Notes under the pieces: generated by a model
Database searches by the model: none
Told to the model about the DNA's origin: nothing
The model's input: only the letters and a program-made list of their open reading frames with translations
Program-made: the position numbers and the translations under genes
Shown here: positions 7,389 to 56,811 of the stretch, piece after piece
Layout: each line of letters opens with the position of its first letter
Position numbering within the stretch: position 1 is the first letter of the stretch
Source of the DNA: a virus
IMG/VR virus record: IMGVR_UViG_3300018080_000170
Location: 6,394-70,393 of that record
Strand: one strand, 5' to 3'
DNA length: 64,000 nucleotides

Positions 7389-7540
7389 AGAAATATCGAT
7401 ATCGTTTTGGCGAAGACGATTATTGGACGACTGTTGATAACCCGTGGGATGTTGATCTCAGTTATATGTTCATAGGGGGAGTTTGTATAGTTGAGTGTAT
7501 CGAGGTGGACGAAGAGAAGGAGGAGAGTGCTGGCGAGTAG
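7385..7540 (+). CDS. 51-aa acidic protein missing from the ORF track; its stop codon lies inside tRNA-Asn
   Basis: GTGA coupling, GGAGG RBS, open to TAG at 7538-7540. Confidence 0.55.
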   Translation: MKKYRYRFGEDDYWTTVDNPWDVDLSYMFIGGVCIVECIEVDEEKEESAGE

Positions 7541-7603
7541 TTCAGTTGGTAGAACGCCTGGCTGTTAACCAGGAAGTCGCAGGTTCGAGCCCTGCCTCGC
7601 CAG
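7531..7603 (+). tRNA. tRNA-Asn(GTT), CCA not encoded
   Basis: Full cloverleaf: TGGCGAG/CTCGCCA, GTTC/GAAC D arm, CCTGG-CTGTTAA-CCAGG, GCAGG-TTCGAGC-CCTGC. Confidence 0.95.
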
Positions 7604-7626
7604 CAGTTTTTAGAGGAGGAAAGGAA

Positions 7627-8556: not shown

Positions 8557-9029
8557 AAATTAAAAAAGTAGATTGGTATTGCTTCAACCATGAGAAAGTT
8601 TATGAGAAGTTTGAAGGCGATTTGAAGTTTATCAATGAGTTTTGTGTTAGAGGCTGGTATCAGCCTGTTGCTGTTTATCGCAATTCTAATCCCAATCGTG
8701 AGAAGAATCATAAAGATTATATGCTTCTATTTATGGACTATGAGTATACCTTCTTTGGTCCAGAAGAAGAGGCGCCAAGACGTCTTATTGTATCTGGAAT
8801 GGATGCAGATGAAATGGAAAAATATCGCTATCAGGGGGCTGTTCATTGCTTGGAATGTGATACAGTCTTGTATAGTATTAATAGACACCACTACCATACA
8901 TGTGATTGTCCGAATAAGGCAATGGTAGATGGTGGAAAAGATTATTTGAAATATGGCTCAAAGAATGGCGCGATTAGAGTTGTTAAGCTTGACCTATTGA
9001 CTAATACGATTGTAGAGGATAAAGAATGA
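8553..9029 (+). CDS. Phage Zn-binding hypothetical protein
   Basis: C..C...S..RH....C.C....VDGG.DY motif common in phages. Confidence 0.7.
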   Translation: MKIKKVDWYCFNHEKVYEKFEGDLKFINEFCVRGWYQPVAVYRNSNPNREKNHKDYMLLFMDYEYTFFGPEEEAPRRLIVSGMDADEMEKYRYQGAVHCLECDTVLYSINRHHYHTCDCPNKAMVDGGKDYLKYGSKNGAIRVVKLDLLTNTIVEDKE

Positions 9030-9994
9030 GTATTAAAGTTTTCTGTGGAACTGCTTCAATGAGTCTTGCTAGCGACATAGTTGCAGATTTAAGTGTATTA
9101 CTTGGCCATTGTGTTACTTTGGGGGAGATGTCGGGGAAGCGTTTTGATGACAAAGAGCTGTTTGTAAAGGTAGAAGAAAGCGTAAGAGGAGAGGATGTAT
9201 TCGTTGTTCAATCTACTAGCTCACCAGCTAACGAAACTTTAATGGAGCTTCTGATTATAATTGATGCCCTAAAGAGAGCCTCGGCTGGCAGGGTAACAGC
9301 TGTGATTCCTTATTTTGGATATGCGCGACAAGATCGCAAAACCTCGCCTCGAACGGCGATTACAGCTAAATTGGTAGCAGATCTAATCACAGTCTCAGGA
9401 GCAGATCGAGTGATCACCATTGATCTTCATTCGCCTCAAATTCAAGGTTTTTTTAACATTCCAGTTGACCACCTTTTGGCCGGTCCGCTTTTTGTTAAGT
9501 ATATTGAAGAGCGCTATTCATGGGATGATAAACTTACGATTGTTTCGCCGGATGCCGGAGGAGCAGCGAGAGCTCATACATTTGCTAAATATTTAGGCGT
9601 TCCTTTGGCGGTGATGAGTAAGAGGCGGAATGAACATAATAAAGTCGAGACGATGGAAATTATTGGAGATGTAAAGGGAAGAGATATTTTTATCTTTGAT
9701 GATATGTGTGATACAGCTGGAACGCTGCTTATGGCGGCCGATGTGTTGAAAGAAAAAGGGGCGGAGGATGTGAGAGCAGCAGTCACTCATCCGGTGCTTT
9801 CTGGGTGGACGATGGATAGGATAGAACAGTCTGAATCATTAACAGAATTAATTATAACTGATACAATTAAGCTTGAAGAACGAATTGAAGATTCTGATAA
9901 GATTCAAATCGTTTCGGTGGCCGGGCTATTGGCACAGGCAATTAGATGTATTTATACTGATGACTCAATAGGAGCCTTATATAGCTATAAATAA
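9026..9994 (+). CDS. prs: Ribose-phosphate pyrophosphokinase (PRPP synthetase)
   Basis: PYFGYARQDRK, DLHSPQIQGFF, VSPDAGG and DDMCDTAGT motifs. Confidence 0.95.
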   Translation: MSIKVFCGTASMSLASDIVADLSVLLGHCVTLGEMSGKRFDDKELFVKVEESVRGEDVFVVQSTSSPANETLMELLIIIDALKRASAGRVTAVIPYFGYARQDRKTSPRTAITAKLVADLITVSGADRVITIDLHSPQIQGFFNIPVDHLLAGPLFVKYIEERYSWDDKLTIVSPDAGGAARAHTFAKYLGVPLAVMSKRRNEHNKVETMEIIGDVKGRDIFIFDDMCDTAGTLLMAADVLKEKGAEDVRAAVTHPVLSGWTMDRIEQSESLTELIITDTIKLEERIEDSDKIQIVSVAGLLAQAIRCIYTDDSIGALYSYK

Positions 9995-10017
9995 GCGGAG
10001 GCGTGTGCTCAAATATA

Positions 10018-10145
10018 GTGCTCGGATCCCTAGGTGGATGGGAGGGTTAGGTGTTAGGGCAAGCTATAGAAACCCATCACTCTCTATAGCCTCTGCGAAT
10101 ACGTCCACCCAATGGCCGTCCTAACACGTCCGTTGGGCCGAGCAC
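10018..10145 (+). ncRNA. Pseudoknotted structured RNA candidate
   Basis: Five nested helices plus a 10-bp crossing pairing (10051-10060 with 10118-10127) in a GC-rich intergenic gap. Confidence 0.6.
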
Positions 10146-10163
10146 AAAGAAAAAGGAAAGGGA

Positions 10164-10454
10164 ATGATTAAACGATTACTAGCACTGAACATAATGCTTA
10201 AGTTTCTGGATGTATATCTAACGCGGATTGCGTTAGGTATTGGAGGAAGAGAGGCTAATCCGATAGCTGATTTTCTCATGCAGATTCTAGGAGTTGATTG
10301 GGCTTTGTTACTATTATTTTGCTGGGTAGTAGCAATTATGACAATCATTGCTCAGTACTATTCTAAAGCAGTTTATGTACTTGGAATTATTGGTATTTTG
10401 CATGGCTCCGTTGTCTTGTGGAATAGTTATGTGATCTATAGACTTTTAGCTTGA
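10164..10454 (+). CDS. DUF5658-like small membrane protein
   Basis: D..LT...L..GG.EANP motif and three hydrophobic segments. Confidence 0.7.
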   Translation: MIKRLLALNIMLKFLDVYLTRIALGIGGREANPIADFLMQILGVDWALLLLFCWVVAIMTIIAQYYSKAVYVLGIIGILHGSVVLWNSYVIYRLLA

Positions 10455-11290: not shown

Positions 11291-11349
11291 ATCCGCCCTG
11301 TAAAGGGTATTATAAAAGTCGCTCCGTCGGGAGCAATGTACAAGACATA

Positions 11350-11450
11350 GCGCTGGGGCGAGGCTGGCTCGCCCAACCCGGGTTCTAGAACTGGGTAAGT
11401 GCACAGGGTTTTAGCGCAGAGTTCGCTAGAAGTTAGTCAGACCCCAGCGC
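11350..11450 (+). ncRNA. Multibranch (tRNA-like) structured RNA candidate
   Basis: Perfect 9-bp closing stem GCGCTGGGG/CCCCAGCGC enclosing three hairpins. Confidence 0.55.
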
Positions 11451-11473
11451 CCTTATTTGAGGAGGAGAGGAAA

Positions 11474-11716
11474 GTGGCCAATAAGGAAATAAATACGGGA
11501 GGAATTAGCGTTACTGGGCTACTGGGAGTTGCTTTTGTCGTGTTGAAGTTGACGGGAGTAATTGATTGGTCTTGGGGTTGGGTGCTAGCGCCATTTTGGA
11601 TTCCACTAGTTATATTTTTGACGATTTTCGCAATGGCAATTGTGGGATTTGTGGTATTTGCTCTTGGCAAAGCGTATATGCAACAAAGACGAGATAAGAG
11701 GAGGTATGGACGATGA
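11474..11716 (+). CDS. Phage two-TM membrane protein
   Basis: LKLTGVIDWSW.WVLAPFW family motif; GTG start with strong RBS. Confidence 0.75.
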   Translation: MANKEINTGGISVTGLLGVAFVVLKLTGVIDWSWGWVLAPFWIPLVIFLTIFAMAIVGFVVFALGKAYMQQRRDKRRYGR

Positions 11717-12258
11717 GGAGAGCATTATTTGCAGTTACGTTAATCTTGATGGGCTTATTTTTAATTAGCTGTGGAAGCGAGAAGATCGTTGAAACAGTTA
11801 CTAATAATGGACCACAAGGTGAACAAGGAGAAATGGGAGAGCCGGGCGAAACGGTTGTTGTAGAGGTTCCAACTCTACCGGAGTTTGTTGGTGAGTATTA
11901 TTTGCCATTTTCTGGCTATGTTATCATCAATGTGAACCATGAGGATGAATACTCTGTTACAGCTCGCTATGAAACATTGAACCCAGACGACTCTATTTGC
12001 GTGTTATCTCTGAATGGAAGTACAATTGATTTGCATAATGATATCTTGCTGTATGGAGCAACAGTGAGCCTTGTTAGCGGAAATTGTGATGACGATACTA
12101 CAGGAGCAGCTTTATCGACTGGCTCAGGTCGAAACTACCGATATGAAGTAGTGATTGGCTTTAATGATGATGATTTGCTAACAGTTAACTTGCAAGTGTT
12201 TCAGACCCGCAATGGGGTGACAACTCGAGTTATTAACCGAGATATGGTTGAGGAATAA
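11713..12258 (+). CDS. Lipoprotein with short collagen-like linker
   Basis: Lipobox LISC; GPQGEQGEMGEPG. Confidence 0.7.
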   Translation: MRRALFAVTLILMGLFLISCGSEKIVETVTNNGPQGEQGEMGEPGETVVVEVPTLPEFVGEYYLPFSGYVIINVNHEDEYSVTARYETLNPDDSICVLSLNGSTIDLHNDILLYGATVSLVSGNCDDDTTGAALSTGSGRNYRYEVVIGFNDDDLLTVNLQVFQTRNGVTTRVINRDMVEE

Positions 12259-12259
12259 A

Positions 12260-12592
12260 ATGAAACTAGAAGAACTGAAAGATTTTTATCTTATTTTGGT
12301 TAATGAAGAAGACAATCTTGTTTGTCAGAATACTAGTTATCTTTCCAAAGATTGCGCAATCAATGAAAATTGCTGTATCTCAGCACAATATTTGCATACT
12401 AGCGAAGAAGGGTACGATGGATGCCCGAGTATAAATTACGGAGATTTTCATAAGTGGGAAGCCTATGAGTATTTTACTCAAGCTTTTGAGAATGTAAAAT
12501 CGCCTGAAACAAAAATTACTTTACTATATCAAATGTTGTTAAGAACAACTCGTCAGCTGCAAGAGCTTAGATGTCAGTTAAGGAGCGTATAA
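12260..12592 (+). CDS. Hypothetical protein
   Basis: GAGGA RBS. Confidence 0.6.
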   Translation: MKLEELKDFYLILVNEEDNLVCQNTSYLSKDCAINENCCISAQYLHTSEEGYDGCPSINYGDFHKWEAYEYFTQAFENVKSPETKITLLYQMLLRTTRQLQELRCQLRSV

Positions 12593-47343: not shown

Positions 47344-50300
47344 ATGCCCAGAAAGCTTAAAGGCGATCATACTGTAGAACGAGATCTTCGTGTTGAACGA
47401 AATATAACTCAAGAAAGCGCCGCCAATCCTTTGCGAACGATGAAGGATTTAAGTGGGGCTGTTGATAAAAAGACAATTCGAGAAGTTGTATCTAGCGGAA
47501 ATTACAAGTTATATTCTGTCAACGATGACGATTCTACGAATGTTGATAATATACTTGTGGTTAATCTTGAGTCGGGGAATATTGGTATTGGCGTCGTCCC
47601 GACTAATTCGGGTGGGAATGCCCTGCGAATTGGTCTCACTACTACAGTTAAGGGAAATAGCGAAAAATTAACTGCCTATAACGAAGCAACAGCTGGAACA
47701 GCCGATACGACTGTTGGCGCTAGATTATTGCTTGATTCTAATTCTGCGAATACTGCAGGCCAATCTACTATCTATTCAGAAGTTAGACGTAGAATGACTG
47801 CTAGCACTGAAGATACGGCTGGAATTTTATCTGCTCTAGAGTTGAAATCTGTTCTAGATCCGGATGGAGGAGCTGTTACTTATACTCATAGTGATGGGAC
47901 TATGGGCGTGGCGGATTTGGTTGCTCATGGTATTCAGAATGTTGGTTCTGGAAGTCTTGCTATTTCTCATGCTGCGGCTCTTTATGTTAAAGCAAATTCG
48001 GTTGTTGGCGCAACCAATAAGTATGGATTGTATATTGGTACAATTGCAGGAAGTACAAATGATTATGCAATTTATACTAATACAGGGAAGGTAAGATTTG
48101 GCGAGACGGTAGAGATTCAGCAATATCTTGGTGTTGGAAATGCTCCTAGTTCTACTGTCGGAGCTTATATTCAAAATACAGATCTAACGGGAACAGTTCA
48201 GACTGGAATTCATAGCTCTCCAATTAGTACGGCGGCTGCAACAGTTAGTATGCGCGGAATTGTTTCGGCTCCTCAAACAACAGATGCTGTATTTACTTGT
48301 GAAAATTTGACGGCTTTTATGGCTTTAGACGCGGCTAAAGGAGCATCCTCAACTATAACTCGTCATAGGATGTATTACGCTGCTTCTCCTACTCAGGGGA
48401 CAAATAACGTTTGGGGAACAGACAATCTAACATTCACTGGAGATTACGTTTTTCATTTTACTTCTACCCGTCCAAGTGAATTTGCCGGTAGAGCTGGTTT
48501 TGGTGGTTCGGCTTCAGCAAATGCGATCGTACGAGTTGGTGCAACTAATCCATTGGGGGGTACTATTCAGCGTGGGTTTGCCGCCGAGATGGAGGCGACA
48601 TCAAATGCTACTAATGCAGTTGTAGGTGTTCTTGGTAACGTTACGACAGCTGCGGCTTCTTTTACTACTGCTTATCTTGCACAACTTCAAGCATCAGATA
48701 GAGCTAAGGGGTCTGGAAGCACTATTACCAGGAAAATTGGTATTCATGCGCCGATGCAAACTGGCGGAACGAATAACGCAATTCTTGTAGATAATACTTC
48801 TTTTGTTGGTAATTTTGGAATTAATTTAGCTACTATGAGCCCATCTGAGTTTGCTGGACGTATGGGTATTGGTGGTAGTTCTAGTTCTGGAGCAGTTTTA
48901 CAAATTGCTGCATCTAATCCAATTACTAGCGTGGAACAAAGTGGGATATTTATTCCTATAGTTGGAAGTTCCGATGCCACAACGGCTATTTTTGGAGTCC
49001 AATCATATCCGACAACTGCGGATGAGACTTTTACATGTGCGCTTGTTACAGGTTATACATTTTATGACAGAACAAAAGGTGCTGCTTCAACAATTACACG
49101 TCACATTGGATATTATGGAGCTCAACCTACACAGGGCACTTATAATACTTTTATTTCAGATGACGATTCGTTTACTGATGATTATTCAATTTATTTAGTT
49201 TCTAGTAGGCCATCTTATTTGGGCGGCGATCTTAGCATAGATGGTGATTTAAATATTACTGGTGCATTAAACGCCGATGGCGGGATTAACGATACGTCTG
49301 GCGATATTATTCAGTCTACAGTTGGAAGTTTCTTCTGGAATATTGATTCTAATGATGATAGCTCAGATGAGGTTTTTGAGTGGGCGTCGGATCGAGTAGG
49401 GGATTCGGGTGGTGATATTTTAATGCGCCTAACCGATGAAAATATTTTATATTTGTTTGATTCGGCAAGTAATGGTCCCGCTTCGGGGAATCTTAAAAAT
49501 TATGCTAGTTATCAAGCTGGTATTGGAGCCGCAAGCGATTCCGAGTTCGGCTTATTCGCAGGAATTGCTGATGGTGTATTAAGTTTGTCTGGCGACACCG
49601 GGTTTGGCGCCGGTTCAACAAAGTTGAGTATTTTTAGTGGTGGGCATTCTACTCCAAATAAAATGGTTGCCTATATTGATGGTAATGTTTTAGCTCAGTT
49701 AGATGCTACAGGCTTACAAATAACAAGTGATGGTGATGCACCTCTAAAAGTTATTAGTGGCGATCCTGGGTCAGATTTGCAAGTTACTGATAGCACAATG
49801 ACTGCTCATATTCGAGCATATAATGAACAATTTGCAATTGCTAGTGCAGGGACAAGTCCTATTTATTTTATTTCTGATTATGGCAATGGATCAACTAGCG
49901 CCGATTTTATTTGGAAAACGGACTCTACTACATTAAATACTCCTAATGGCACAGAGTTAATGAGACTCACCGATGGAGGAAATCTTTTAATTGGTATTAC
50001 AGCTCCCGATGGGATTGAAGCGCTACACGTTAAAAAGAGTTATAGCGGCGCTGGATCTTTTGAAGCTGCCTATATTGAAGCTATTTCATCTCCAAGCGTG
50101 GCACTAACTGGTGGGGTTAATGGTTTAATTGTGTATGGGGAGCGTCAGGTCAGTGCGTCCGCAACAGATACTGGACGCGTTCATGCGCTATCGCTTAGAA
50201 GTCTTTTTGATGTAGATTCCGGACAGACATTAAGCTGTTCTAATTCTTCGGCTTCGACTATATATTCAACTTTACATGTTCAGGCTCCAGCTAATACCGG

Positions 50301-53300
50301 GTCTGGGACAGTTAATCTTGATAAGTTTGCCTATATTTCTATTAGTAGCAATACTCATCTTGATACTGGAACAGATAAGTATGCTATATATATAGATCAG
50401 ATTTGGGGCGCAACTAATAACTGGGGTATTTATCAGACGTACGGTGGAAACAATAACTATTTTGCTGGCCCTATCCGAGCCGGAACAACTGGCGGGATTA
50501 CAGATGCCGATGAACAAGTAACTGTTTATCGCGAGTATGATGCAGATAGTCTTAACCCCGTAGGATTAGGGGTCAGGCTTGTTTTAGATAGATCATCTGC
50601 TTATACTATTGCTAATTCGCGCGGTGCTGAAATTGAAGTTCAAAGAAGTTATGGTTCTAACACAATTTCAGAAGGTCATGATTTATTTGGAAGCGCATTT
50701 AGGGCTCTTTTTAATGGTAGCGGCTCATATACAAATACTTCAAATGTTATGGTTATCCGTACTATTTCGCCGTCTTTTTCAGGCGGCGGAACAGTTAGTT
50801 TGAATTCTTATATGGGCATGTTTATTTGTGACGTGAGTACTTCTAACGCAACAAATCAGTTTGGTTTATATATCGGTAATCAAACAGGTGGCTCTTCTCA
50901 AAATTATGCTATTTATACTAATGATGGCGCGGTTCGTTTTGGTGAGCAAGTTACTGTCGAAGATAATCTTGGTCGCGGACTAACTATTAAAAATCCAAAT
51001 GCTAATAGTCAAGCCCGAATTAATATGTATGCGTCTGGGGATACTAAATCTTGGTGGCTTGGGAGAATCACTGGCGCAGAGGGAATGTTTGGAATTCAAT
51101 ATGCAAACGGCCTCAATAGTAGCGCACAACTTCAATTAAGAAACAATGCCGATGATGCAATTGATGCGCAAGCTGGAACTGGTAGATTTGCGGCCGGTGG
51201 CCCTACCATTCAAGATACGGATCGTTGGATTATGCTTGGTTTAACCGACACTAGTCAGACAGTTCTTACTGGCACTTCTCAAGTTGGCACGAGAATGGCT
51301 TTTCGCGCCAATAGTAATGCAACGACTATGATTACCGGAGCCGTTATTGACGCTAAAAGCGATGACGCTTCTTTCGCTACAACCGATATTGTAATGTTGG
51401 ATGTAGGCTCATTTACTTTAGGTGCTGGACATACTTGTACAGATATTATTAGTTTACTCGTGAGGCCTCAGCCGATTGATGATGCTACTAATTCGGCTTA
51501 TATTTCAACCACAACTGCATTAGAATCGGGTGATTGGTTTATTCATTCGACTTCAATTCGTCCGAGTTGGTTGTCTGCACCATTGAGAGTTAATCCAGCT
51601 ACCTCAGCTCAAGTTTCAGGAACAAATAATACTCTTCTTGAAATTATTCGTTCATATACAGGTGCTGCTGGGAATTCGCATATTGCGGCTTTTATTGAAA
51701 ATGATTTAACAACAAACGCTTCTCTTACTGCCACTCAAACAACTTTAGAAGTTAAACATAGCCGAACTGTAACGGATGATGTTTCGGAGGCGACTGGAGT
51801 CGGACTCGGTTATGCGGCTAATCTTTTGGTTGGGTCGGATTTTGATGTTGCAGCTACAAAGACATATTCATATACTGATTCTGGTGGCTATAATGAAATT
51901 TCAATCGCCACTTTAAATGAGTTAGGGGCCGGAACAACTGCTATTTCAAATTATGTTAAGTTACGTATTAAATCCGATACTGGCTCAAACAGTACTAATA
52001 AGTATGGAATTTTGATTGATGATATTTCTGGCGCTAGTAATTTAAATTACGCTATTCGAACTAGTGCTGGCCAAGTATATCATGCGGATAATACAGGTAT
52101 AGGTGCTTATCCCGACCCCGATATGGCATTGAGAATTGGATGGTCTGGAAATGCGACCGATATTAATCAATATGGTATTTATGTTGGAACAGAAGCAAAT
52201 TCAAATGCTACTACTTCGTTGTCAGGGATTGCAATTCTTCCTACAACGGATAATGCGGCGTTTACATGCGCAAGAGTTTTTAATGTTAGAGCTTTAGCTG
52301 CCCAAGCTGGAGCCGGTAGTACAATTCAATATGCTATTAGTTATAATTCGCAGACACAAACCGTTGGAAGCGTTGGAAATGCAGTTCTTGCTGACAATTA
52401 TAGTTTTAGCGGCGATTACGGTATTAATCTAAACACCACTCGTCAGAATTATTTTGGTGGCCCGATTAGAGTTAATGATGACAACGGTGTTATTAATACT
52501 ACTGAAATGCTAAGTGTAACAAGAAATTACAATGGAAATGCAGCAGATTCTCATACCGCCGTTACTCTAAATTGGGATTTAGATACCGACGATGCTCTTA
52601 CAGGTGGCCAAAGTTGCGTTCTTTATTCTCGTTGGAAAAGAACTATTGATGCTAATGTAACAGATGCGCCTGCTGGGGGCTTTGGCGCAATTCAGAATAT
52701 GCAAATTTCTCGTATTTATGATGTTGATGCAGCCGCCACGTATACTTTAACAGATGCGGATGGAATGGCTGCAATTAGAATTCCTAGTGTTTCACTTTCG
52801 GGCGGCGGTACATTAGCTGTTTCACAGATGTACGGAATTTACATTCATGCTGATAGTATTGCAACTGGAATTAATAAGTATGGTTTGAGAATTGGTGGGA
52901 TGACGGGCGCAACTAATAACTACGCTATTTATACTGGGATAGGACTCGTTCATTTTGGCGGTGATGTTGAAATTGATGGCGGAGAATTGTTAGTTGGAGA
53001 TGGAACTGGTCTTTCTACGATGAGTATTCCCGACACAGCTGGAGGAGCTCCATATCTTGGAGTTAAAGAATCATCTCAGCCAGTTTATACGTCTATTGCG
53101 CACCAAGATGGGACTTACAATAAGAGAATTGGATTATTTGCCAACAGCGACACGGGGAATGTTGGCGTTGTTTATGGCTCTTCTTCAGATATTCCAACAT
53201 TTAAGATTGTAAGTGATTGGAACGATGCTACTCAATTGTCAATTAATGGCAATACAAATCAAATTACAATTCCTTCAGGCGATGTTGATATTACTAGGAC

Positions 53301-56300
53301 CGATGATGGAAGCGCTATGGGCTTGGTTATTGAGAATACTGGGAGTGATAATGCGAATACCCAGGCCAGAGTGCGATGTACAGTTAATGAAGATGCTGCT
53401 CGTTCATATATGGCTATTACCAGAAGCGGATCTTCGACATATGATGTTAGTTGGAATTGGGTATTAGCTACTAATTCAAAAACAATGTATTTGGCTAGAG
53501 ATGGCTTGTCTACTAACATTGCAATGTCTATTGACGCAAGTCAGAATGTTGAAATTCCTCAAATTTTAGGTGTTGGCGGAACTTCTGGTTCTGGTTCTAT
53601 TGTGCGAGTTGGACAAAATAATCCGCTTAGTGGTACCTCACAATATGGCGTAACAATTGAACACGCTGCAACATCTGCCGCCACTACTTCAGCTATTGGC
53701 GTTTTTGGATCCGTAACAACAGCTAATGCTTCTTTTACTTGTGGAATTCTCCGAAATTTCTTTTCAAATAATCCTACACTTGGAGCTGCAAGCACCGTTA
53801 CCCGTAGGATTGGCTACGGCGGAATAATGCCAACAGGCGGAACGAACAACGCATTTATAAGTGACAATATATCGTTCACTAGCGATTGGGGAATTAATCT
53901 ATCAACATCTAATCCGTCTAGGATTAATGGAGATTTAAGACTTAATACTGCATCTGCTATAATTGGCGGATATAATAAATTAACAGTATATGGCGATTAT
54001 GGCGCAGGATCAGAAGGGCATAGTAGTCAGGCTATTGGAGCCGAAGGATTGTTTGATTCAGATAGCCCTTATACTGTAAATTCAAATTCTGGTATTTATG
54101 GGCAACTTAGAAGAAATATTACAACGAGTGTAACTGATACTGGTGGTTATTTTGGCGCGTTAACAGCTAGACTAGCATTTAATGTTGCTTCGGCTCAAAC
54201 ATATACTAACGCGCAGAGTCCTGGATTTGCTTCCGTTATGATTAACTCACCGCAGAACTATGGATCAGGAACTCTTGCCATTACACATTTTGCCGGCCTT
54301 TGGGTTAACAGTTCGTCTCTTGCCACAGGTAGTTATAAGTACGGAATATATGTGGGAAGTCAATCCGGGGCTTCGAATAACTACGCTATCTATACAAATA
54401 ATGGAGATGTCAGATTCGGAGACGATGCTGAAGTAGTTGGAAAAATGGGTGTTGGTGGAGCTGCTTCGTCTAATGCAATTCTTAGAACAGGTTACGCCAA
54501 TCCTCTTACAGGAACTAACCAGCGCGGTTTTGCTGCCGAAATGGAAGCAACATCAAATGCTACTACGCATGTTGTAGGTTATCTTGGTAATGTTACAACT
54601 GAGGCCGCTTCTTTTACAACTCCCTATCTTGCGCAATTTCAAGCATCAGATAGAGGTAAAGGATCTGGAAGCACTATTACTAGGAAGATGGCATTTTATG
54701 CTCAAGAGCAAACTGGCGGAACTAATAATGCTATTATAGCTGACAATCTCACATTTTCTGGAGATTATTGTTTGCATTTCACCAATACGAATCCTAGCCA
54801 TATTTATGGTAGAATCGGAATTGGTGGGTCAGCTCATGTTGATACTGCATTGGCGATTCAAAGACCTAGTAATATAGCGGCTGCAAATGAATATGCAGTA
54901 TTTGTTGATTATGTTGGTAGTTCTTCTGCTACAACAAGCATTCGAGGCTATACTTCGCAAGTTACAACTGCTGCAGCTTCATATACCTGTAGCATTTTAA
55001 CTCATTTTGGTGCCTATGATATTACTAAGGGTGCCGGCTCAACAATTACTCGTCAGCGTCAATATTGGGGACAGCCACCTGAGCAAGGGACAAATAATGC
55101 TTGGGCGACCGATAATGCCACATTTACTGGAGATTGGCATTTGCATTTTACTAATGATCGTTGGTCGTTACTTCCTAAGTTGCAATTGAGCGCGACAGAA
55201 ACTTCTGATGCGAATGCAAGATTGTTTGTTAAGAATGGCGATGACGGCCTTGCAGTAGCGGATAGTGTTGGAGCTGCTCGACAAGTTATTCTTGAAAGTA
55301 ATACAGGGAATTTTGTTGCATTTAGGCGTCCAGATAGCAATTATAGCGGATTTATTTTTAATGAAGGAACCGACGGAGACGCCGCTCAATTAAGACATCG
55401 CTGGACGGGTACTGCTTCTACTAGTGGATATGAATTTAGAACTAATAATGCTCAATTGTTTAGAATTGCTGCTGATGGTTCCATTTACATGGGCTTTGAT
55501 GGATCGAGTGCGGCTAGCTATCTATATGGAGATCGGTTTAATCTTATTTCCAACGGGACTGAAGGATTTCAGCTTGATATCCGAGGCGGCGATACTTCAA
55601 ATGCTGCTAACATTAGTAGAATCGATATGAGAGGTTATCGAGCCGATGCGGGTGGCCGTAGTGTTCAAATTGAAGCTTTTTATGGCTCATCTGGAACAAA
55701 CCGCCAGATTGGTGAAATTTCCTTTAATAATACGACGACTGATCCTACAACTACCGGCGGCGAGCTTGAGATGTTGTTGCACAATACAAGCTCGCTCGGA
55801 ACTGTTCTTAAGATGACTGCAAGTTCAAGTAGTATGATTTTTGATCTTACAAGCCGCGAGACGTTGATTCAATATAGTTCGTCAAGTGGCGTATATATGC
55901 ATCTTGAAAATCAATATGCCGTTTCGTCTACGGGAGCGTATGCACAATTCTTGATTGAAACGAATAATGATAATGCCGATCCTTATGTTAATTGGCGTAT
56001 TAATGATGGCTCGACAGTTAACTGGTCAGCCGGTATTGAGAATGGCGTAAATAATAGATTTAAAATTTGCCCAGCTTCGGGTCTTGGAACTGATCTTGGA
56101 TTAACAATTGGAACTACAGGGACAGCGGTTCTGCGTAGAAACGAGACAGCTTCGTTAGCTGGTGTTCTTGATTTGACTAATACGAATGCAACATCTGTAG
56201 CGAATGGTATTGGGATGAGGTTCCAGGCTCATAGCACAGATGATGTGGTTCGTACAATGGGCGAGATTTATTGTGTTAAGGAGCAGGTATGGACCAGCAC

Positions 56301-56811
56301 TTCAACTACAAGAGATGCACAGCTCCGATTTTATACTAGTTTGAACGGAACAACCGGCGGGGCGGGGCAGGAAGCTCTTATTCTTGATAGCGCTAAGGAA
56401 GTCTATTTCCCGAATATTTCAACTACGGGCTCTGCTGCGAATGCATTTTTGGATAGTGGAAATAGTAATCAGCTTTTGAGATCGACTTCATCAGCTCGAT
56501 ATAAGATGAACATCGAAGATATGAATATCGATAGTTCAAAAATCTTTAGTTTAAGACCTGTTGAGTTTGATGATCGTAACCGCGGGACACATCACTTTGG
56601 TCTTGTCGCTGAAGAAGTTGCAGAGATTCTTCCTGAATTAGTTCAATTTGCTCCTGAGAAGTGTTTAATTCCAGATAGCGATTCGGATAAGAAAGTTCCT
56701 GATGGAGTTCAATATCAGTTGCTTAGCGTACTTCTGTTGAATGAAGTCAAGAAACTCAATAAAGAAATTGAAAAAATTAAATCAGAAAAAGATACAAATA
56801 GGAGTAACTAA
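47344..56811 (+). CDS. Giant tail fibre (3155 aa) with C-terminal S74 intramolecular chaperone
   Basis: Internal repeats; SSARYKMNI...LRPVEF...GLVAEEV...PELV followed by a coiled coil. Confidence 0.85.
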   Translation: MPRKLKGDHTVERDLRVERNITQESAANPLRTMKDLSGAVDKKTIREVVSSGNYKLYSVNDDDSTNVDNILVVNLESGNIGIGVVPTNSGGNALRIGLTTTVKGNSEKLTAYNEATAGTADTTVGARLLLDSNSANTAGQSTIYSEVRRRMTASTEDTAGILSALELKSVLDPDGGAVTYTHSDGTMGVADLVAHGIQNVGSGSLAISHAAALYVKANSVVGATNKYGLYIGTIAGSTNDYAIYTNTGKVRFGETVEIQQYLGVGNAPSSTVGAYIQNTDLTGTVQTGIHSSPISTAAATVSMRGIVSAPQTTDAVFTCENLTAFMALDAAKGASSTITRHRMYYAASPTQGTNNVWGTDNLTFTGDYVFHFTSTRPSEFAGRAGFGGSASANAIVRVGATNPLGGTIQRGFAAEMEATSNATNAVVGVLGNVTTAAASFTTAYLAQLQASDRAKGSGSTITRKIGIHAPMQTGGTNNAILVDNTSFVGNFGINLATMSPSEFAGRMGIGGSSSSGAVLQIAASNPITSVEQSGIFIPIVGSSDATTAIFGVQSYPTTADETFTCALVTGYTFYDRTKGAASTITRHIGYYGAQPTQGTYNTFISDDDSFTDDYSIYLVSSRPSYLGGDLSIDGDLNITGALNADGGINDTSGDIIQSTVGSFFWNIDSNDDSSDEVFEWASDRVGDSGGDILMRLTDENILYLFDSASNGPASGNLKNYASYQAGIGAASDSEFGLFAGIADGVLSLSGDTGFGAGSTKLSIFSGGHSTPNKMVAYIDGNVLAQLDATGLQITSDGDAPLKVISGDPGSDLQVTDSTMTAHIRAYNEQFAIASAGTSPIYFISDYGNGSTSADFIWKTDSTTLNTPNGTELMRLTDGGNLLIGITAPDGIEALHVKKSYSGAGSFEAAYIEAISSPSVALTGGVNGLIVYGERQVSASATDTGRVHALSLRSLFDVDSGQTLSCSNSSASTIYSTLHVQAPANTGSGTVNLDKFAYISISSNTHLDTGTDKYAIYIDQIWGATNNWGIYQTYGGNNNYFAGPIRAGTTGGITDADEQVTVYREYDADSLNPVGLGVRLVLDRSSAYTIANSRGAEIEVQRSYGSNTISEGHDLFGSAFRALFNGSGSYTNTSNVMVIRTISPSFSGGGTVSLNSYMGMFICDVSTSNATNQFGLYIGNQTGGSSQNYAIYTNDGAVRFGEQVTVEDNLGRGLTIKNPNANSQARINMYASGDTKSWWLGRITGAEGMFGIQYANGLNSSAQLQLRNNADDAIDAQAGTGRFAAGGPTIQDTDRWIMLGLTDTSQTVLTGTSQVGTRMAFRANSNATTMITGAVIDAKSDDASFATTDIVMLDVGSFTLGAGHTCTDIISLLVRPQPIDDATNSAYISTTTALESGDWFIHSTSIRPSWLSAPLRVNPATSAQVSGTNNTLLEIIRSYTGAAGNSHIAAFIENDLTTNASLTATQTTLEVKHSRTVTDDVSEATGVGLGYAANLLVGSDFDVAATKTYSYTDSGGYNEISIATLNELGAGTTAISNYVKLRIKSDTGSNSTNKYGILIDDISGASNLNYAIRTSAGQVYHADNTGIGAYPDPDMALRIGWSGNATDINQYGIYVGTEANSNATTSLSGIAILPTTDNAAFTCARVFNVRALAAQAGAGSTIQYAISYNSQTQTVGSVGNAVLADNYSFSGDYGINLNTTRQNYFGGPIRVNDDNGVINTTEMLSVTRNYNGNAADSHTAVTLNWDLDTDDALTGGQSCVLYSRWKRTIDANVTDAPAGGFGAIQNMQISRIYDVDAAATYTLTDADGMAAIRIPSVSLSGGGTLAVSQMYGIYIHADSIATGINKYGLRIGGMTGATNNYAIYTGIGLVHFGGDVEIDGGELLVGDGTGLSTMSIPDTAGGAPYLGVKESSQPVYTSIAHQDGTYNKRIGLFANSDTGNVGVVYGSSSDIPTFKIVSDWNDATQLSINGNTNQITIPSGDVDITRTDDGSAMGLVIENTGSDNANTQARVRCTVNEDAARSYMAITRSGSSTYDVSWNWVLATNSKTMYLARDGLSTNIAMSIDASQNVEIPQILGVGGTSGSGSIVRVGQNNPLSGTSQYGVTIEHAATSAATTSAIGVFGSVTTANASFTCGILRNFFSNNPTLGAASTVTRRIGYGGIMPTGGTNNAFISDNISFTSDWGINLSTSNPSRINGDLRLNTASAIIGGYNKLTVYGDYGAGSEGHSSQAIGAEGLFDSDSPYTVNSNSGIYGQLRRNITTSVTDTGGYFGALTARLAFNVASAQTYTNAQSPGFASVMINSPQNYGSGTLAITHFAGLWVNSSSLATGSYKYGIYVGSQSGASNNYAIYTNNGDVRFGDDAEVVGKMGVGGAASSNAILRTGYANPLTGTNQRGFAAEMEATSNATTHVVGYLGNVTTEAASFTTPYLAQFQASDRGKGSGSTITRKMAFYAQEQTGGTNNAIIADNLTFSGDYCLHFTNTNPSHIYGRIGIGGSAHVDTALAIQRPSNIAAANEYAVFVDYVGSSSATTSIRGYTSQVTTAAASYTCSILTHFGAYDITKGAGSTITRQRQYWGQPPEQGTNNAWATDNATFTGDWHLHFTNDRWSLLPKLQLSATETSDANARLFVKNGDDGLAVADSVGAARQVILESNTGNFVAFRRPDSNYSGFIFNEGTDGDAAQLRHRWTGTASTSGYEFRTNNAQLFRIAADGSIYMGFDGSSAASYLYGDRFNLISNGTEGFQLDIRGGDTSNAANISRIDMRGYRADAGGRSVQIEAFYGSSGTNRQIGEISFNNTTTDPTTTGGELEMLLHNTSSLGTVLKMTASSSSMIFDLTSRETLIQYSSSSGVYMHLENQYAVSSTGAYAQFLIETNNDNADPYVNWRINDGSTVNWSAGIENGVNNRFKICPASGLGTDLGLTIGTTGTAVLRRNETASLAGVLDLTNTNATSVANGIGMRFQAHSTDDVVRTMGEIYCVKEQVWTSTSTTRDAQLRFYTSLNGTTGGAGQEALILDSAKEVYFPNISTTGSAANAFLDSGNSNQLLRSTSSARYKMNIEDMNIDSSKIFSLRPVEFDDRNRGTHHFGLVAEEVAEILPELVQFAPEKCLIPDSDSDKKVPDGVQYQLLSVLLLNEVKKLNKEIEKIKSEKDTNRSN

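Follow-up and report, generated by a model that had tools for sequence, protein, structure and literature searches.

A 169-nt gap separates prs, a phage gene for PRPP synthetase, from a gene for a small DUF5658 membrane protein, and most of this gap is occupied by a compact stretch of 128 nt whose internal complementarities suggest a pseudoknotted RNA. The questions raised by this locus are whether the stretch encodes a genuine RNA and, if it does, what kind of RNA this is. The window, that is, the whole 64,000-nt stretch of DNA analyzed here, comprises bases 6394-70393 of a 70,393-base IMG/VR virus record with an estimated completeness of 62%, and the DNA stems from a myophage of roughly 114 kb, of which 70 kb are represented. 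The major head protein, the tail sheath, and baseplate proteins of the phage are recognized in a PHROGs search, and the first of these shares about 31-32% identity with Herelleviridae homologues, e.g., those of SPO1-like Bacillus phages; on sequence grounds, the phage is a rare myophage that is distantly Herelleviridae-like. It has two close relatives, one of which (G002) is complete and comprises 113,606 bp with terminal repeats. The tail region of the window contains a single ORF of 3155 aa (47344-56811, + strand) followed by an ORF of 1043 aa.

The genes that flank the element are co-oriented with it; a spacer of 23 nt separates the prs stop codon from the start of the element, and 18 nt lie between the end of the element and the ATG of the DUF5658 gene (Table 1). 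The upstream gene encodes a full-length PRPP synthetase that is 50-55% identical to the products of bacterial prs genes. It also has a weak PHROG match to a family annotated as nicotinamide phosphoribosyltransferase, which may indicate a link to the salvage of nucleotides or NAD. A tRNA-Asn gene (GTT; 7531-7604, + strand) is found by both ARAGORN and Rfam about 1.4 kb upstream of prs. In the relative G002, a tRNA gene lies about 2 kb upstream of its own prs (8915-8987, on the - strand of its locus), and the pairwise alignment with the relative shows no identity over 7551-7600, so the tRNA regions may differ or may be misaligned. Literature searches for DUF5658, and for a phage RNA motif combined with ribose-phosphate pyrophosphokinase and intergenic, found no paper.

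Table 1. Coordinates of the structured element, its predicted parts, and the flanking genes, given as positions in the window.
Feature	Position	Strand	Remarks
Whole structured RNA element (E1), 128 nt	10018-10145	+	GC 0.56 vs. 0.40 for the window; single copy in each of three phage records
5′ linker behind the prs stop	9995-10017	+	Holds GGAGG (9997-10001) and TGTGCTC (10004-10010); 0/23 positions differ from the relative
P1, 5′ strand	10018-10025	+	Pairs with 10138-10145; 8/8 pairs kept; one G-C to G-U change
P2 hairpin (revised)	10026-10044	+	Stem 10027-10030 with 10040-10043, 9-nt loop; C-G to G-C and C-G to U-G changes
L2 strand GGTGG	10033-10037	+	Putative loop-loop (kissing) pairing with CCATC 10074-10078; U-A to C-G and G-U to G-C changes
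Pseudoknot 5′ strand, J2/4	10051-10060	+	Predicted to pair with 10118-10127; 10/10 pairs in both sequences; sole change C-G to U-G
P4 hairpin	10063-10090	+	8 bp, 10063-10070 with 10083-10090; 12-nt loop with CCATC; U-A to C-G compensatory change
J4/5, 17-nt strand CTCTGCGAATACGTCCA	10091-10107	+	Identical in both sequences
P5 hairpin	10108-10137	+	8 bp, 10108-10115 with 10130-10137; A-U to G-C and U-G to U-A changes
P1, 3′ strand	10138-10145	+	Abuts P5, zero bases between
A-rich 3′ linker	10146-10166	+	Shine-Dalgarno stretch about 10152-10161, ATG 10164; 1/18 linker positions differ
prs	9026-9994	+	Pribosyltran_N E = 3.6e-50; stop codon TAA 9992-9994
DUF5658 membrane ORF, 96 aa	10164-10454	+	ATG at 10164
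96-aa ORF, then metallophosphoesterase	downstream of the DUF5658 gene	+	Same-direction cassette

The element is predicted to fold as a cloverleaf-like four-way junction composed of P1, a short P2, and the 8-bp hairpins P4 and P5. Two tertiary pairings would lock this fold, namely a 5-bp helix between L2 and L4 (GGCGG/CCGCC in the relative; GGYGG with CCRYC overall) and a pseudoknot of up to 10 bp between J2/4 and L5, the 3′ strand of which (10118-10127) is contained in the 14-nt loop of P5. In this fold, the 17-nt J4/5 strand would remain exposed. One further pair of the P2 hairpin, 10026/10044, forms in the relative only. The base run directly 3′ of P1 is AAAGAAAAAGG, and the Shine-Dalgarno of the downstream cassette starts about 7 nt past P1.

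This model is drawn from few sequences. Both relatives are identical over the element, which leaves two distinct sequences, both from one sample lineage. They differ by 16 substitutions in 128 nt, 15 of which fall in paired columns without breaking a single pair. In the revised model, 43 of the 44 pairs form in the window and all 44 in the relative, and the changes comprise four double compensatory changes, five one-sided wobble changes, and one substitution at an unpaired position. Random placement of 16 substitutions matches the revised model in only 2 of 100000 trials, a figure to be read with the model being partly post hoc, part of it having been built from the same two-sequence data. Some of the helices had been named beforehand. 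Every string given in a sequence-only reading of this DNA stands where that reading located it, and its P1, P4, P5, and crossing helix keep 33 of 33 pairs in the relative despite seven substitutions in their columns, an outcome that random placement reaches in 236 of 100000 trials; P5 extends to 8 bp. Moreover, RNAalifold independently returns P1, the short P2 hairpin, P4, and P5. Other pairings of that reading fared less well. Its own P2 (GGTGGATG/CGTCCACC) loses two of eight pairs in the relative and its P3 (GGAG/CTCT) one of four, in neither case with a compensating change. The contact that it proposed between GATGGG and CCCATC in the P4 loop breaks in that register when the relative is compared by hand; the pairing with the P4 loop covaries in the shifted register adopted here (GGTGG/CCATC).

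The folding energy and the crossing helix were compared with shuffled controls. The 128-nt RNA has an MFE of -49.8 kcal/mol (z = -2.68), and 3 of 200 dinucleotide shuffles fold as well; the minus strand has the same z, and the two strands can thus not be told apart by energy. Of 2000 dinucleotide shuffles, 339 contain a 10-bp helix (G-U pairs included) at some location, and the length of the crossing helix alone is thus unremarkable. In 5000 shuffles confined to the unpaired letters, with the nested helices kept as they are, J2/4 and L5 match over 10 bp 7 times, and any two unpaired segments do so 36 times. The 5-bp match between L2 and L4 is common by chance (911 of 5000 loop shuffles). The crossing helix contains a single change, C43 to U, which is also compatible with nested pairing of that base with the G at element position 78. 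The 10-bp pseudoknot of the sequence-only reading is thus conserved, and beyond chance, but it is not proven, as its covariation does not discriminate between the alternatives. We infer that the pseudoknot forms, and the geometry of a 14-nt loop with 2-nt linkers suggests that all ten pairs may not be made simultaneously. The same reading had also proposed that the upstream TGTGCTC might replace the 5′ strand of P1. The string is present, and the linker has complementarities of 8 bp and 7 bp to the element, unchanged in sequence in the relative; these are at chance level, as 1937 of 5000 shuffled linkers have a match of at least 8 bp, and neither this alternative P1 nor the pairing GCGGAGGC/GCCUCUGC is retained as significant.

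The distribution of the substitutions carries further information. Unpaired positions are changed at 1 of 40 and paired positions at 15 of 88 (Fisher p = 0.02). This avoidance of unpaired positions points to tertiary structure or to a binding or active site centered on J4/5, which is the proposed site of that kind. G-U pairs make up 7 of 88 pair cells and would become A-C mismatches on the minus strand; this places the RNA on the + strand, which is also that of the genes, and a minus-strand RNA was rejected for this reason. High conservation alone is not special for the element, since all of the long gaps are well conserved: the 12 intergenic gaps of at least 70 nt in the phage pair are 77-98% identical, and this gap is 90% identical. 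At four-fold degenerate sites, the divergence is 44% in prs and 59% in the DUF5658 gene. Taken at the level of sequence comparison, the element is a non-coding RNA on the + strand, and it is very probably genuine, folded, and maintained by selection.

The element matches no described RNA family. Rfam 15 (4227 models) was searched over the window at gathering thresholds, where the sole match is the tRNA at 7531-7603, and over 9900-10300 at E ≤ 10, where the only matches are to three snoRNA models (E 5-7.6), none of which covers the element. No model of the ykkC clan, of a riboswitch, or of a known self-cleaving ribozyme matches in this interval at E ≤ 10, which agrees with the opinion of the sequence-only reading that the element is not ykkC-like. 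ARAGORN finds no tRNA or tmRNA at the element, its only call being the tRNA-Asn gene. That reading had named three outcomes that would speak against it, i.e., a crossing helix lost from homologues, a folding energy ordinary among shuffles, and membership in a known family; what was found is a crossing helix retained in the relative, an energy that few dinucleotide shuffles equal, and no Rfam family.

Potential control signals around the element were also considered. There is no terminator-like site (a GC-rich hairpin plus a U tract) in 9995-10163, and the earlier remark that the stretch has more structure than a terminator needs is borne out by a selected + strand structure with no U-tract behind it. 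A T4-type late promoter at TATAAATA (9986-9993) was rejected, the motif occurring 10 times in comparison with 6.4 expected and mostly on the minus strand. A conserved sigma-70-like promoter near the element was likewise rejected, the only shared site (TTAACA-17-TACAAT) being inside prs and uninformative. Sequestration of the Shine-Dalgarno was dismissed as well, because this stretch is predicted to be unpaired (0.80-0.83) in both sequences, and there is thus no classical expression platform. Judged by generic riboswitch criteria, the locus combines an aptamer-like fold with a predicted-unpaired Shine-Dalgarno, no terminator, and alternatives in the 5′ linker that are at chance level.

The element is an orphan of narrow distribution, known from one rare phage lineage. 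A distant-mode blastn search of 50,697 phage records returned eight records, each covering at most 14% of the query with E ≥ 2. In viral contigs, the pattern GTGTTAGGG-N40-70-CCTAACAC occurs in 27 stretches, among which only the contigs of the two known relatives resemble the element, and a 16-mer of J4/5 likewise occurs in 27 stretches, again with just the two known relatives; in genome contigs, the two-block pattern occurs in two stretches, neither of which is matched by the covariance model of the element. Searches through the neighboring and marker genes gave the same picture. Among the prs neighbors in viral contigs (80 loci kept), identity drops from 92% to 53% beyond the two relatives, and the covariance model matched only the window when it was applied to this DNA, to 40 of the 78 distant prs loci, and to one further locus. 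The best 80 of at least 600 matches in a metagenome scan with prs are all at most 55% identical, and the covariance model matched 0 of these 80. The DUF5658 protein is represented by two loci in viral contigs and by two proteins among 5.8 billion, and tblastn found no match to it in the 50,697 phage records. The major capsid protein has two close loci; the alignment query gave 21 loci, the rest of which are at most 33% identical, and the covariance model gave no match in 19 distant capsid-matched whole records. In the one sequencing run with the region, a DNA run, no version besides the two known ones is present, and these are distinguished by the same 16 differences; the run thus gives no independent support for the element. 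Over 9800-10400, both phage versions co-occur in this run, with a depth of about 36-42 for the relative type and about 6-11 for the window type.

A second structured stretch lies 1.3 kb downstream of the element. It is a conserved, GC-rich intergenic stretch (11291-11473, + strand; GC 0.55-0.56) that is flanked by the phosphoesterase ORF and by an ORF for a small transmembrane protein with a probable start at GTG 11474, and it is located about 9 nt upstream of the next Shine-Dalgarno. It contains a long-range stem formed by GCGCUGGGG (11350-11358) and CCCCAGCGC (11443-11451), and its MFE is -56.3 kcal/mol (z = -2.5). The portion 11320-11410 hardly differs in the relative, and an inner hairpin is, as judged by eye, changed on both sides. 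An Rfam search of this stretch at E ≤ 10 gave four matches, all to models of eukaryotes or animal viruses, with scores that fall far short of the gathering values and none of them credible. The stretch hints at a logic shared by intercistronic structures in this region; equally, the region may hold a cluster of different functional RNAs. Two segments, 11450-11700 and 12250-12590, have no counterpart in the aligned locus of the relative and are gene-sized replacements or indels in the accessory island; the former starts right behind the second structured stretch.

The element can be compared with several known systems. With SAM-I-like four-way-junction riboswitches, it shares a length of about 100-130 nt, a closing P1 with three hairpins, a predicted loop-to-junction pseudoknot, invariant junction nucleotides, and a position just 5′ of a gene. 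However, its topology is mirrored, in that the loop of the last hairpin pairs with the first junction; it also has an extra loop-loop helix, lacks a terminator or a platform that sequesters the Shine-Dalgarno, and has no Rfam riboswitch match at E ≤ 10. The small ribozymes of phages (hammerhead, twister, pistol, hatchet, and HDV-like) resemble it in having a compact pseudoknotted fold with loop-loop contacts, an intergenic position co-oriented with the genes, and no expression platform. On the other hand, no covariance model of such a ribozyme matches, no hammerhead core is seen by eye, 128 nt is larger than most of them, and catalysis is only a candidate function. Operator pseudoknots of the T4 gene 32 type are also similar, being pseudoknotted leaders followed by an unstructured A-rich ribosome-binding-site stretch, whereas the gene downstream of the present element encodes a small membrane protein and not an RNA- or DNA-binding one. 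The likeness to tRNA and other cloverleaf RNAs consists of a closing stem of 7-8 bp that is abutted by the last hairpin and of one linker base followed by a 4-bp stem, the 9-nt loop of which contains GG and pairs with a second loop; by contrast, the element has 128 nt and no T-loop by eye, its D-like loop pairs with the middle arm, and neither ARAGORN nor the Rfam tRNA model recognizes it. With the PRPP riboswitch of the ykkC subtype it shares only the neighborhood of a PRPP-related gene, but it is located 3′ of prs and not 5′ of a purine gene, and it has no ykkC-clan match. Finally, the catalogue of “csRNAs” from IMG/VR phages (PMC10690425) contains orphan phage intergenic motifs of a similar kind. 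Its entries had to have three or more unique matching regions and to be significant in R-scape; the element has two unique versions, and it is thus probably not listed there.

The reading that this is not an RNA element at all, and instead a small ORF, a DNA site (a MITE with inverted ends, an attC-like site, or an origin), or a chance structure, is very improbable. It can draw on a frame of 39 codons that is open in both sequences, on ends that are inverted repeats with GTTAGG and CCTAAC motifs, and on a folding z that is equal on both strands. However, the frame, which runs from GTG 10005, shows 11 non-synonymous changes and 1 synonymous change (25 and 105, respectively, in prs), and the small ORF was rejected; the order GTTAGG...CCTAAC is the reverse of that in an attC site. 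The single copy per genome, the strand-specific wobble changes, and a compensatory pattern that is far from random likewise argue for an RNA. The idea of a passive barrier or 5′-end protector that stabilizes or insulates the cistrons on either side and has neither a specific ligand nor catalytic activity is also improbable, though less so. The strong closing stem and the intercistronic position would suit it, as would the second structured stretch, which likewise precedes the next Shine-Dalgarno; the GGAGG of the 5′ linker has no usable start codon and might add a STAB-SD-like effect. A barrier, however, needs neither a covarying loop-loop pairing nor a 10-bp pseudoknot, and it does not need 39 of 40 unpaired positions to be unchanged.

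The inference of the sequence-only reading that the stretch is a candidate ribozyme, switch, or independent ncRNA is supported in its core, on the basis of two distinct sequences. It is fairly probable that the element acts in cis in some way. Our best guess, held tentatively, is a cis-acting leader of the downstream cassette that binds a factor. A feasible model may be that the element is transcribed on the + strand within a message that extends from prs to the DUF5658 gene, the two being presumably co-transcribed, and that the knotted core and J4/5 serve as the docking site of a protein or small ligand. Docking would set the expression of the cassette of DUF5658, the 96-aa ORF, and the phosphoesterase, and it would influence 30S loading or 5′-end processing sterically or kinetically rather than by Shine-Dalgarno sequestration. 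Counted against such a leader are the lack of a visible expression platform and of a terminator, and the fact that nothing about the downstream DUF5658 gene suggests a ligand. Close to this reading stand two rivals, each of which is rather unlikely. A self-cleaving ribozyme of a new class might separate prs from the downstream cassette by cutting the polycistronic message between them; the compact fold, the two predicted tertiary pairings, the invariant junction strand, and the absence of an expression platform are consistent with it, as is a position between co-oriented genes in the accessory region of a phage, with a second, different structured element nearby. Known small ribozymes are frequent in the intergenic regions of phages and tend to cluster. 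Against this, no Rfam ribozyme model matches even at E ≤ 10, and no candidate cleavage site can be named. The other rival is a stable trans-acting ncRNA that would be excised from the operon transcript at A/U-rich single-stranded flanks and would work with a host or phage protein. It is favored by termini paired in an 8-bp P1 that abuts P5 in a cloverleaf-like outline, by A-rich, unpaired flanks on both sides, and by loops and junctions that are nearly unchanged. However, the element has no promoter or terminator of its own, is missed by ARAGORN and by the tRNA model, and is present in one copy per genome. Partner proteins were not found either: RVT_1 (the retron/DGR partner; control search positive in 3 of 14 genomes), TnpB-type PF07282, and TROVE/Ro60 PF05731 each gave matches in 0 of 2 records (the record of the window and the complete G002), the gene upstream of the element being prs.

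At present, the element is a well-supported orphan structured RNA and a useful candidate, and not yet the discovery of a mechanism. It is possible, if somewhat doubtful, that it is the first representative of a novel RNA class with a catalytic or ligand-sensing function, either a self-cleaving ribozyme or a riboswitch aptamer, that controls the accessory cassette next to prs. If the fold were confirmed and cleavage or ligand binding shown, the element would represent a new RNA class, and it would then provide an example of RNA-level control in a phage accessory island that carries prs, a membrane protein, and a phosphoesterase.
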